DNA of 40,270 nucleotides from a virus (lineage: Duplodnaviria; Heunggongvirae; Uroviricota; Caudoviricetes): positions 1-40,270 of IMG/VR virus record IMGVR_UViG_2740892440_000005. One strand, written 5' to 3'. Numbering within the stretch: position 1 is the stretch's first letter; every line of letters begins with the position of its first letter. The position numbers and the translations under genes were made by a program. Below the pieces are notes generated by a model. That model had not been told where the DNA came from. It did no database searches and saw only the letters and a program-made list of their open reading frames with translations. Shown in pieces: positions 19,859-21,045 of this stretch.

Positions 19859-20305
19859 TAGCGATAATTTTACTCATCATCCTTCACATCTGGCTCTGTA
19901 GACAGGGTGGTGATCACTTCTGGAGTGAATCCAGATTAAACATCTCATTGCTGATGCTTGAAGTTGAGCATCTGGCGCGCGGTAAGGGGCTGCGTTGAGA
20001 TAAGAGCCAGTTCATTACAAAGCCTATCTACGGGTGGGCTTGATAATGAAACCGGAATTTATTCTGGGCAACCAGTTACGGCAGTACAGCGAAACAACCC
20101 AAGCCAGTAAGTGGGGAAATAACACTGGCAGCCACTGAAAGATGAACCTCCTGCCTTATGGCAAAAAAGATTCTTTGTGGTGGCGGACTGATGGAAAGAC
20201 ATCGGTTATTGCAGAGACCATTCAATGAGTGGTCTCGACAATGGCTTATACCCTACACGGGATAACTTAACTGATATCCCTTTTAACGGATAAACGGAGC
20301 CAACA

Positions 20306-20548
20306 ATGGCAGAGATTATTCCCATGACTGAAGAACAGAAATTCCAGTTAGAGATTTACAAACTGGTCATGAACCAGAACGCAGCCGCAGAAGAAGCATT
20401 TCAGTTCATTGGCACTGACGAACTGAAGCTTGAGCTATTCAAAATTCACTTCCAGTCAGGCGGCGCTAATTCGGATATCACGATCCGCACACTTGAAGCG
20501 GTGCGTAAATCGAAGGAAGCGTTAGACCTGTTCACCACCGGAGTGTAA
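20306..20548 (+). CDS. Hypothetical protein (80 aa)
   Basis: Track ORF; GGAG RBS 6 nt upstream of ATG. Confidence 0.5.
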   Translation: MAEIIPMTEEQKFQLEIYKLVMNQNAAAEEAFQFIGTDELKLELFKIHFQSGGANSDITIRTLEAVRKSKEALDLFTTGV

Positions 20549-20551
20549 GAG

Positions 20552-20839
20552 ATGACTGAACAAGAAATGCCGAGATACCAGTGCCACAAAAAAGTTCGCG
20601 CCCTGAAGATTGGCTCTATAGAACATAAGCCAAACCCAGATCAGTCTGGTAAGACTGGCTCTTCTAGTTATGGGGCAATTATTCATCCGGATGATAAGAA
20701 ATACGCAGCATTTGATGTTAGCGCGGAATATATCTGTAAGCACCGACCAATGTCTGGAGGCTATTACGTTGTCTATGAGGATGGATATGAATCATATTCT
20801 CCTGCTGAGGTATTTGAGTCTGGATATTCAAAATTATAG
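20552..20839 (+). CDS. Hypothetical protein (95 aa)
   Basis: Track ORF starting 4 nt after the preceding stop. Confidence 0.5.
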   Translation: MTEQEMPRYQCHKKVRALKIGSIEHKPNPDQSGKTGSSSYGAIIHPDDKKYAAFDVSAEYICKHRPMSGGYYVVYEDGYESYSPAEVFESGYSKL

Positions 20840-20848
20840 GAACCCTCT

Positions 20849-21028
20849 ATGACAAGCGTCGTTGATCTTGGTAAGGAGAAGAAATTCCCAATTACTCAAG
20901 AGCTATACGAGCGGCTTGAAAGCGTCATCCATGATTACGATGGTGAAATCAGTTTATGCGAGGCGATTGGCGCACTCGAATTGCTGAAGCAGTCACTGAT
21001 TGAAGGCGCGAAAGAGTCCTCAACCTGA
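20849..21028 (+). CDS. Small hypothetical protein (59 aa)
   Basis: Hand-translated (MTSVVDLGKEKKFPITQELYERLE...); AGGAA RBS. Confidence 0.35.
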   Translation: MTSVVDLGKEKKFPITQELYERLESVIHDYDGEISLCEAIGALELLKQSLIEGAKESST

Positions 21029-21045
21029 AATGACAATTAAGTGAG

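Follow-up and report, generated by a model that had tools for sequence, protein, structure and literature searches.

In a stretch of 40,270 nucleotides (nt) from a P22-like phage (Lederbergvirus), here called the window, the region between the lysis genes Rz/Rz1 and the small terminase gene terS (positions 19860-21045) is a variable array of accessory genes. The part of this array that looks non-coding is not spacer, but a set of conserved structured linkers, which are punctuated by two copies of an uncatalogued covarying hairpin that we term the E element. As the lysis-to-packaging interval is a known hot spot of variation, an accessory array at this position is as such an ordinary finding; what is new is the E element and the observation that a rare 95-residue protein encoded in the array (ORF95) is a spike-less relative of the OB domain of the decoration protein Dec. 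Taken as a whole, the region is likely to work as an array of cassettes and folded linkers within the late operon, in which the E hairpins are intercistronic elements and three optional proteins are produced.

Insertion slots between the lysis and packaging genes

The late genes of the window follow each other in the order holin (18642-18965), lambda-R-type endolysin, Rz/Rz1 (19421-19858), accessory region, terS, terL and portal. An earlier note on this DNA, made from the sequence alone, had described about 450 base pairs (bp) of non-coding DNA followed by three tightly spaced small genes just upstream of terS. Open reading frames (ORFs) of 60 amino acids (aa) or more are indeed absent from both strands at 19859-20305, the three plus-strand ORFs of 80, 95 and 59 aa have the coordinates given there, with spacings of 3, 9 and about 17-23 nt along the three into terS, and the next gene downstream is terS (PF16677 GP3_package, E 3.6e-33). 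However, the first 140 nt of the supposedly non-coding DNA belong to a conserved 50-aa ORF (ORF50), the counterpart of Sf6 gene 65 and epsilon34 gene 67 (phrog_11822, E 8.6e-38), which is variably present in related loci. The real gap therefore extends from 19999 to 20305, i.e. over 307 nt. All features of the region are located on the plus strand:

19846-19998, plus strand: ORF50, 50 aa, overlapping the Rz stop codon, with a hydrophobic N-terminus
19999-20305, plus strand: structured linker, i.e. the joined segments sA-sD with slots A-D empty, without a conserved coding frame
20011-20050, plus strand: first E element (E1), -20.4 kcal/mol, z -4.9, 67.1 bits with the covariance model
20052-20067, plus strand: small hairpin CCGGAA/UUCUGG, at slot B
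20131-20184, plus strand: conserved hairpin in segment sB, z -3.4
20204-20246, plus strand: second E element (E2), -24.2 kcal/mol, z -5.5, 65.2 bits with the covariance model, directly right of slot C
20259-20280, plus strand: inverted repeat GGGATA-N10-TATCCC, a weak hairpin, -8.3 kcal/mol, z -3.4
20306-20548, plus strand: DUF2560 protein, 80 aa (P22 orf80, HK620 hkbM, Sf6 gp67)
20552-20839, plus strand: ORF95, a 95-aa OB-fold protein filling slot E, distantly homologous to the N-terminal OB domain of Dec
20849-21028, plus strand: 59-aa protein (P22 orf59c, HK620 hkbN, Sf6 gp68; phrog_3546, E 4.1e-41)
21052-21540, plus strand: terS (P22 gp3 type), which bounds the region on the right (first in-frame ATG at 21046; the start equivalent to that of P22 is 21052)

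The array becomes apparent when the window is compared with its relatives. Against eight annotated phages (Kapi1, HK620, Sf6, P22, HK022, epsilon34, Bas106 and Huey) the alignment breaks sharply at 20013-21, 20061-65, 20203-05, 20264-92 and 20544-20869. In 86 related loci, which were collected via the DUF2560 gene and each split into the segments of the window, the region consists of five insertion slots (A-E) between the invariant linkers sA, sB, sC and sD, and filled and empty slots occur in every combination. That conserved linkers flank variably filled slots in these loci bears out the earlier suggestion that this position is a frequent site of accessory cargo. The slots hold the following:

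Slot A: cargo of 570-1200 bp in relatives, including Rha, KilA-N plus hkbL, a GIY-YIG nuclease and others
Slot B: cargo of 16 or 57 bp in relatives; Sf6 and HK620 with 57-61 extra nt
Slot C: cargo of 129-631 bp, including the Sf6 gp66/N4 gp49 family (PF13876), DUF551 and several unknowns; annotated as 'anti-CRISPR' in phage Huey
Slot D: in P22, the leftward 632-bp pid moron (PMC3573128, PMC8835761)
Slot E, after DUF2560: empty, the 95-aa ORF, or gp70 plus dec (epsilon34-type phages)

In the window slots A-D are all empty, so that the linkers are fused into a single untranslated stretch of 307 nt, and slot E is occupied by ORF95. Five other loci (L012, L041, L054, L070 and L072) share the layout with A-D all empty. 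The inverted repeat GGGATA/TATCCC pointed out in the earlier note is present as well (arms 20259-20264 and 20275-20280), and its position is the exact site at which pid resides in P22, i.e. an empty slot D.

The corresponding segments of P22 (rha-orf25-pid-orf80-orf59c), Sf6 (genes 65-68), HK620 (hkbK-hkbN) and epsilon34 (genes 67-71) likewise lie between Rz/Rz1 and terS. They have the residents DUF2560 (orf80) and orf59c in common with the window, as well as ORF50 in the form of Sf6 gene 65, and their linkers are 93-98% identical to those of the window at the nucleotide level. In contrast to these phages, the window lacks rha/kilA, Sf6 gp66, pid and dec and possesses an additional 95-aa gene between orf80 and orf59c. 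With megablast and blastn, fragments of the region were matched in more than 200 lambdoid phages of Escherichia, Salmonella, Shigella and Klebsiella and no single record matched 80% of the query in one piece; neither a phage nor an E. coli genome was found to be identical. By these sequence comparisons the window is a new mosaic.

The E element and the folded linker

The two strong palindromes in the gap are two copies of one hairpin of about 45 nt with the layout 5'-(Y)CAUUA-CA-[7-bp stem]-loop-[7-bp stem]-GA-UAAUG-3', in which an outer stem of 7-8 bp and an inner stem of 7-10 bp enclose a 2x2 CA/GA internal loop. The start of an E element lies 2-12 nt behind the stop codon of the cassette that precedes it. 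E1, which has CAUUA/UAAUG as its outer stem, CA/GA as its internal loop and an inner stem that varies, begins 12 nt past the stop codon of ORF50, and its 5' flank, CATTACAAA, is the slot A junction. The P22 equivalent of E2 has a compensatory GAGGCCA/TGGCCTC stem and overlaps the annotated 'orf25'.

The element is specific for this locus. In the 40-kb window, nhmmer finds exactly two copies, both in the gap at 19999-20305, and in the related loci it finds 151 plus-strand copies, all of them 69-902 nt upstream of DUF2560. When both strands of four whole genomes (163 kb) were scanned with a covariance model (R1), matches were confined to the lysis-to-packaging gap and to the late-sense strand, with two copies in the window, two in HK022, one in P22 (over orf25) and three in the Klebsiella phage Kp4887-3, which was outside the training set of the model. 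In Kp4887-3 (L100 14298-15275), DUF2560 is diverged yet still in the family (Pfam E 3.6e-20), and E hairpins and DUF2560 are situated between the lysis genes and an HNH-terminase module, with the third E copy between DUF2560 and the HNH gene; the 305 nt upstream of DUF2560 fold unusually well also in this phage (z -4.3). The place of DUF2560, with an E hairpin just upstream, is constant across packaging modules of the P22, Sf6/HK620, HK022 cos and Klebsiella HNH types.

Furthermore, the stems covary. In 45 distinct E copies, 93.7% of the cells are paired, versus 85.7% in shuffles (0 of 500 reaching the observed value) and 27-55% when the partner column is slid, and two-sided changes are seen in 55 cells versus 25 in shuffles (again 0 of 500). 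One base pair appears as CG, GC, AU and GU, and not one of the 45 copies deviates in the CA/GA internal loop. Cells with G.U are more frequent than cells with A.C (53 versus 16, and 19 versus 0 in the inner stem); this excess points to the late-sense strand and, most simply, to RNA as the form in which the element acts.

The linker as a whole shows the same strand preference. Plus-strand RNA of the 307-nt gap folds with -109.2 kcal/mol versus -73.2 +/- 4.7 kcal/mol for dinucleotide shuffles (z -7.74, 0 of 100), with the minimum free energy structure being identical to the centroid, whereas the minus strand reaches a z of only -2.96; the plus-strand fold is thus far better than chance would give. 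Identity of the linkers is 90-99% in more than 200 lambdoid phages. Seven of the eight common polymorphisms in 41 distinct variants of sB-sD fall into predicted loops, and the eighth, an A-to-G change, produces a G.U pair. The GGGATA/TATCCC repeat is the weakest of the palindromes (4 of 200 shuffles were equally good), the hairpins at 20011-20050 and 20204-20246 being much stronger, and the conserved hairpin in sB bears a minus-strand terminator-like site at its apex (20168 to 20147). Rfam 15 yields no match at the gathering score in the whole window and none at E up to 1 in 19800-20400.

Could the gap nevertheless be a decaying, functionless remnant of deleted genes, with its conservation reflecting recent common ancestry? 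Empty slots and the very high identity among relatives would be in line with this idea, and the minus-strand terminator-like site in sB could be the leftover of a lost leftward gene. However, the strand specificity of the fold (z -7.7), the covarying stems and the retention of the E architecture in the diverged Klebsiella phage, despite its diverged flanks, make such a remnant improbable. An origin from rha in particular was rejected, because the match in P22 begins just past the rha stop codon and not within the gene.

Least probable of all is that the gap encodes small proteins, such as P22 'orf25' or the 35-aa and 30-aa ORFs, or a small RNA expressed from the prophage. It is true that orf25 is annotated here in P22, that ST64T-type phages carry an annotated 118-aa fusion beginning in this stretch and that a structured RNA would be compatible with a small RNA. 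But in relatives the ATG of the 35-aa ORF is changed to AAG and indels in an A-run shift its frame, the 30-aa ORF is interrupted by the slot B insert, and ribosome-binding sites are missing, and these mini-ORFs, including orf25, were rejected as genes. In P22 itself, orf25 (25 codons, NC_002371.2 40329-40406) overlaps the E2 hairpin (40303-40357) and extends into the pid terminator; since its frame is not conserved in relatives, it is probably not a gene. With respect to a small RNA, there is neither a promoter-like site nor a plus-strand intrinsic terminator by consensus scan and no Rfam match, and the known prophage anti-sRNAs map to the PR' moron site instead (PMC4104026). An assignment to the anti-sRNAs AgvB/AsxR of enterohaemorrhagic E. 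coli prophages or to the Pas small RNAs was also rejected; the former belong to the PR' moron site and the Pas preprint is silent on the locus.

The E elements are not intrinsic terminators either, as they lack a U-tract: both E1 and E2 continue with GAUAAUG(A/G) rather than a run of U, and no plus-strand terminator was found by scan in the gap. E1 was also considered as the terminator annotated in epsilon34 and rejected, that terminator being a different sequence within slot A cargo.

In the DNA, the flanks and outer stems of the E elements, which are conserved, provide the homology patches for the exchange and deletion of cassettes. Three loci (L056, L064 and L067) carry E1/E2 hybrid elements that delete segment sB, and the slot A cassette of HK620 has CATTACAAA at both ends. 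Short conserved 'boundary' or 'linker' sequences have reportedly been proposed for lambdoid phages before (Susskind and Botstein; Clark et al. 2001). As in that proposal, conserved junction sequences are re-used in recombination here; the boundary sequence bsq7 annotated in the Sf6 record, however, lies in Rz and not at the E elements.

Does this mean that the E hairpins are primarily sites of DNA recombination comparable to integron attC sites or repetitive extragenic palindromic (REP) elements, which would fold in single-stranded DNA for a recombinase or nuclease that moves the cassettes? The similarity to attC is real, since every cassette is made up of an ORF and, 2-12 nt further on, an imperfect palindrome as its 3' end, with conserved outer and variable, covarying inner sequence; moreover, the hybrids mark deletions, and homing-type nucleases (GIY-YIG, HNH) are found within the array or close by. 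We nevertheless regard this explanation as unlikely. There is no dedicated recombinase linked to the array, no recombinase gene being present in the span from holin to terL that was examined, and ordinary homologous recombination in the conserved linkers of 40-140 bp can account for the exchanges observed. E2 is 79% identical between the filled and the empty alleles of slot C, which are thus not simple excision products. Finally, the excess of G.U over A.C fits RNA, although one strand of DNA would fit too.

ORF95 and the decoration protein Dec

ORF95 is present in 16 fetched loci in addition to the window, corresponding to about one in five relatives, and always in the arrangement DUF2560-[3 nt]-ORF95-[9 nt]-ORF59. 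In 50,697 phage records, only Bas106 (99.7%) and Dewey (70%) gave a match spanning most of the query. ORF95 has no Pfam family, and NCBIfam and PADLOC searches with the four small proteins yielded nothing credible, the sole match being JetB with E 0.013. Its own family comprises 444 clusters with the motif MPRYQCHKKVWALKI...GGYYVVYEDGYxSYSPAxAFExGY.

The relationship to Dec emerges from structure and from profile comparison. The AlphaFold2 model of ORF95 (pLDDT 81) is a small OB-type barrel, for which Foldseek finds Dec (6e3c) as the sole match in PDB at E up to 1e-3 (E 4e-4). An hhalign comparison of the family profile with Dec aligns Dec residues 10-94 with a probability of 89.6% (E 1.9e-6); the match in a plain profile search is only marginal (E 0.99). 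ORF95 and the Dec protein of phage L/epsilon34 (PDB 6e3c) share the OB fold and a GGY...G...AFE.xY motif and are 28% identical along some 80 residues, and dec occupies the same slot, between DUF2560 and terS, in epsilon34, L088 and L094. ORF95 is therefore homologous to the N-terminal OB domain of Dec. Of the three genes of unknown function in the earlier note, this one is now narrowed down to a relative of that domain.

An obvious idea is that ORF95, either by itself or in combination with the 59-aa protein in the same frame, is a Dec-like decoration protein that binds and stabilizes the mature head. The shared fold, the detectable match of profiles with the capsid-binding OB domain of Dec and the identical genomic slot speak for it, as does the position of a homologue, gp05 of Ralstonia phage GP4, between portal and major head genes. 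Still, decoration in the manner of Dec is unlikely. Dec has a C-terminal trimerizing spike (residues ~90-134) that it cannot do without in capsid binding, whereas the chain of ORF95 stops at residue 95 with the end of the OB domain, and spike-less Dec1-98 fails to bind to P22 virions (PMC11398494). The two residues of Dec site 1 that are critical for binding, K30 and Y49, align with E24 and D55 of ORF95, which are both acidic, i.e. the same type of change as in the K30D and Y49E mutants with their reduced binding (PMC6449081), and the partner residue 81 of the coat protein is still acidic in the window phage (D81). In GP4, the cement protein that has been resolved is gp1, which has an Ig-like fold and is not the ORF95 homologue (PMC9698820). 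Also, other members of the family are found in quite different surroundings: one is located in a replication module between a single-stranded DNA-binding protein and an Acb2/Tad1-like gene, and another one is fused to MazG. A further member lies upstream of terS and beside a phage metallopeptidase in a phage with a P22-type portal.

The relation between ORF95 and its downstream neighbour deserves separate mention. ORF95 and ORF59 are in the same frame, with a single TAG between them that overlaps the AGGA ribosome-binding site of ORF59 (20837-20848). In five rare database variants this TAG is replaced by GAG or CAG, which results in a 158-aa ORF95-ORF59 fusion. Such natural fusions hint at a functional link, as far as sequence variants can tell, and the combination of an OB domain and a C-terminal helical domain formally resembles the OB domain plus spike of Dec; against a fused decoration protein, the TAG stop is retained in all 16 loci. 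Lacking a spike and being acidic at the positions of K30 and Y49, ORF95 is classified here as a distant OB homologue and not as a decoration protein, and it probably does not decorate capsids as Dec does. We favour, though with low confidence, a role as an accessory ligand-binding protein for nucleic acid or nucleotide, possibly in counter-defence.

Several further observations concern this protein family. C11, H12 and H64 (window ~20582-20587 and 20741-20743) are near-invariant in the ORF95 family and absent from Dec; judging from this pattern, they could form a metal or ligand site. Nine Ralstonia phages match only the first ~60 nt of ORF95: in R. solanacearum phages (GP4, YL1, AhaGv and others), the first 52-59 nt (window 20552-20615; MPRYQCHKKV.ALKI) are 83-85% identical at the DNA level, which is unexpectedly high for such distant hosts. 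The gp05 gene of GP4 also adjoins a CsrA-like gene. In two unrelated phages, L006 and L096, a metallopeptidase-like gene lies directly upstream of the Dec/ORF95-family gene, i.e. epsilon34 gp70 with a HECAH motif (L006 2324-2713) and a PF18894 PhageMetallopep gene (L096 4322-4963); the two genes may be a conserved pair.

Expression and possible roles of the array

The three optional genes seem to be built into the late operon. A consensus scan, which weak promoters could escape, finds no plus-strand sigma-70-like promoter and no intrinsic-terminator-like site at 19860-21045, and the two promoter-like matches in the region (versus 2.4 expected) belong to the minus strand. The ORFs each have a ribosome-binding site and are separated from the next gene by only 3-23 nt. 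These features argue for accessory genes of the late operon that are coupled into terS rather than for self-contained morons. The region would be transcribed within the Q-antiterminated late operon, and the three optional late proteins would be translationally coupled into terS. The strict definition of a moron, reportedly that of Juhala et al. (2000), demands optional genes between conserved neighbours that have their own promoter and terminator, for expression from the prophage, and that lytic growth and lysogeny do not need. The genes in the window correspond to the first part of this definition but not to the second, the third being covered for orf25 and orf80 by reports on P22 (see below); in other words, the earlier note, which had proposed moron or accessory cargo, is right with respect to optional and variable genes at a fixed position, while a promoter and terminator of their own were not found by the consensus scan.

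In relatives, cargo in slots A and C contains canonical plus-strand intrinsic terminators inside the late operon, for example AGCCTCGC-ATTT-GCGGGGCT followed by T6 or GGTCGC-TCAG-GCGGCC followed by T6 (L006 1160-1200; slot C of L030, L035, L042 and L094). Cargo of this kind is in keeping with genuine morons, insulated as long as Q is lacking.

None of the three ORFs is a core gene. The window DUF2560 protein matches PF10834 over profile positions 1-72 of 72 with 143.8 bits (Pfam cut-off 25); its gene has a GGAG ribosome-binding site 7 nt upstream, and four helices are predicted. The family is narrow, with 69 representatives at E up to 1e-3 in an exhaustive HMMER search of 1.84 billion proteins and six loci, all near-identical, in a profile search of genome contigs. 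Apparent DUF2560 'fusions' to a GDSL lipase, a KDPG aldolase or a helix-turn-helix domain contain a truncated DUF2560 and look like chimeric gene calls; they were set aside as uninformative. No Pfam family matches ORF59, and orf59c, like DUF2560, is a family of small proteins with a narrow distribution among enterobacterial phages; both are predicted to be small helical proteins, with the helices being predicted for DUF2560. In the literature searched, no functional study of DUF2560, orf59c or hkbM/hkbN was found. The earlier note had named conserved core genes with morphogenetic roles as the finding that would speak against accessory cargo. Instead, P22 orf25 and orf80 are reported to be unnecessary for lytic growth or lysogeny (bioRxiv 10.1101/2023.08.15.553423), and an orf25-orf80 deletion is viable, with plaques and lysogens still being formed (PMC11016777). 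ORF95 and orf59c are variably present, the latter being missing from many loci with the same terS, in which DUF2560 is followed by terS after 34 nt.

What may the E hairpins do in this context? In the late transcript they would serve as intercistronic stem-loops, which would shield the message of each cassette from 3' exonucleases; in addition or instead, they may be RNase III processing sites like those of T7, with two helices around a small internal loop. The closest known counterparts are T7 RNase III sites, REP elements and the stem-loops downstream of the coat genes of P22, HK97 and lambda, which are likewise stable hairpins just past stop codons in long polycistronic phage transcripts. 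Like these, E elements have two helices with a small internal loop between them, are located between cistrons and lack a U-tract. In contrast to these, they form a single sequence family at a single locus, have an invariant CA/GA loop and are shorter than classical RNase III substrates.

Several points weigh against the likely scenario of cassettes and folded linkers with a role in the late transcript. A function of the hairpins in RNA stability or processing is inferred, and with a total of 16-20 bp they are short for a classical RNase III substrate. The E copies represent only three or four paralogous classes, which means few independent compensatory events, such that the shuffle control overstates the significance of the covariation. 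An identity of 90-99% between linkers does not prove selection, as lambdoid phages recombine often. On the protein side, the structural model of DUF2560 is of low confidence (pLDDT 65.7), and with family members in replication modules and MazG fusions any function of ORF95 in this phage is a guess.

A more far-reaching version of the scenario would be that E is an undescribed locus-specific nucleic-acid signal that defines a late-operon cassette system in lambdoid phages. Each optional gene would then come with its own 3' E hairpin, whose CA/GA loop and CAUUA/UAAUG stem would be read by a dedicated factor—possibly the adjacent DUF2560 protein or a host RNase—that sets the mRNA dosage of the cassette or promotes its capture, as an analogue of attC or REP. 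At present, we consider this a long shot.

In the neighbourhood of the array, the lambda-R-type endolysin gene (18949-19424) is frameshifted near 19319, where one G is lost from a GGG run in comparison to R of epsilon34 (TCTGGGCT to TCTGGCT), so that the 158-aa protein is split into ORFs of 141 and 39 aa; either the prophage is defective or the homopolymer was misread in sequencing. Further upstream, an ORF for an HNH plus AP2-domain homing-endonuclease-like protein (17642-18154; PF13392, PF00847) precedes a stretch of about 480 nt that contains no credible ORF and extends up to the holin gene (to 18640). This stretch, which has no tRNA or Rfam match, could by its position hold the late promoter/terminator region. 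A tRNA scan of the window found none.

Overall, the gap between lysis and terminase genes is a major site for optional genes in P22-like and other lambdoid phages, as exemplified by pid, rha, dec and ORFs annotated as anti-CRISPR. That its slots are split by one repeated covarying hairpin provides a simple rule for finding cargo and predicting new cargo sites, and it suggests that P22 orf25 and some other annotated mini-ORFs represent hairpins rather than genes. If processing or stability of the late transcript is indeed under the control of the hairpins, these would represent a compact and portable element with which the expression of inserted genes could be tuned in engineered P22-type phages. 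Through ORF95, Dec, hitherto a 'novel OB-fold' standing on its own, gains a link to a family of small phage OB proteins that is both large and widespread. Both the E element and the link between ORF95 and Dec should be of modest interest to phage biologists, the latter also with a hint at the origin of Dec: a decoration protein could arise by the addition of a trimerizing spike to a pre-existing accessory domain.

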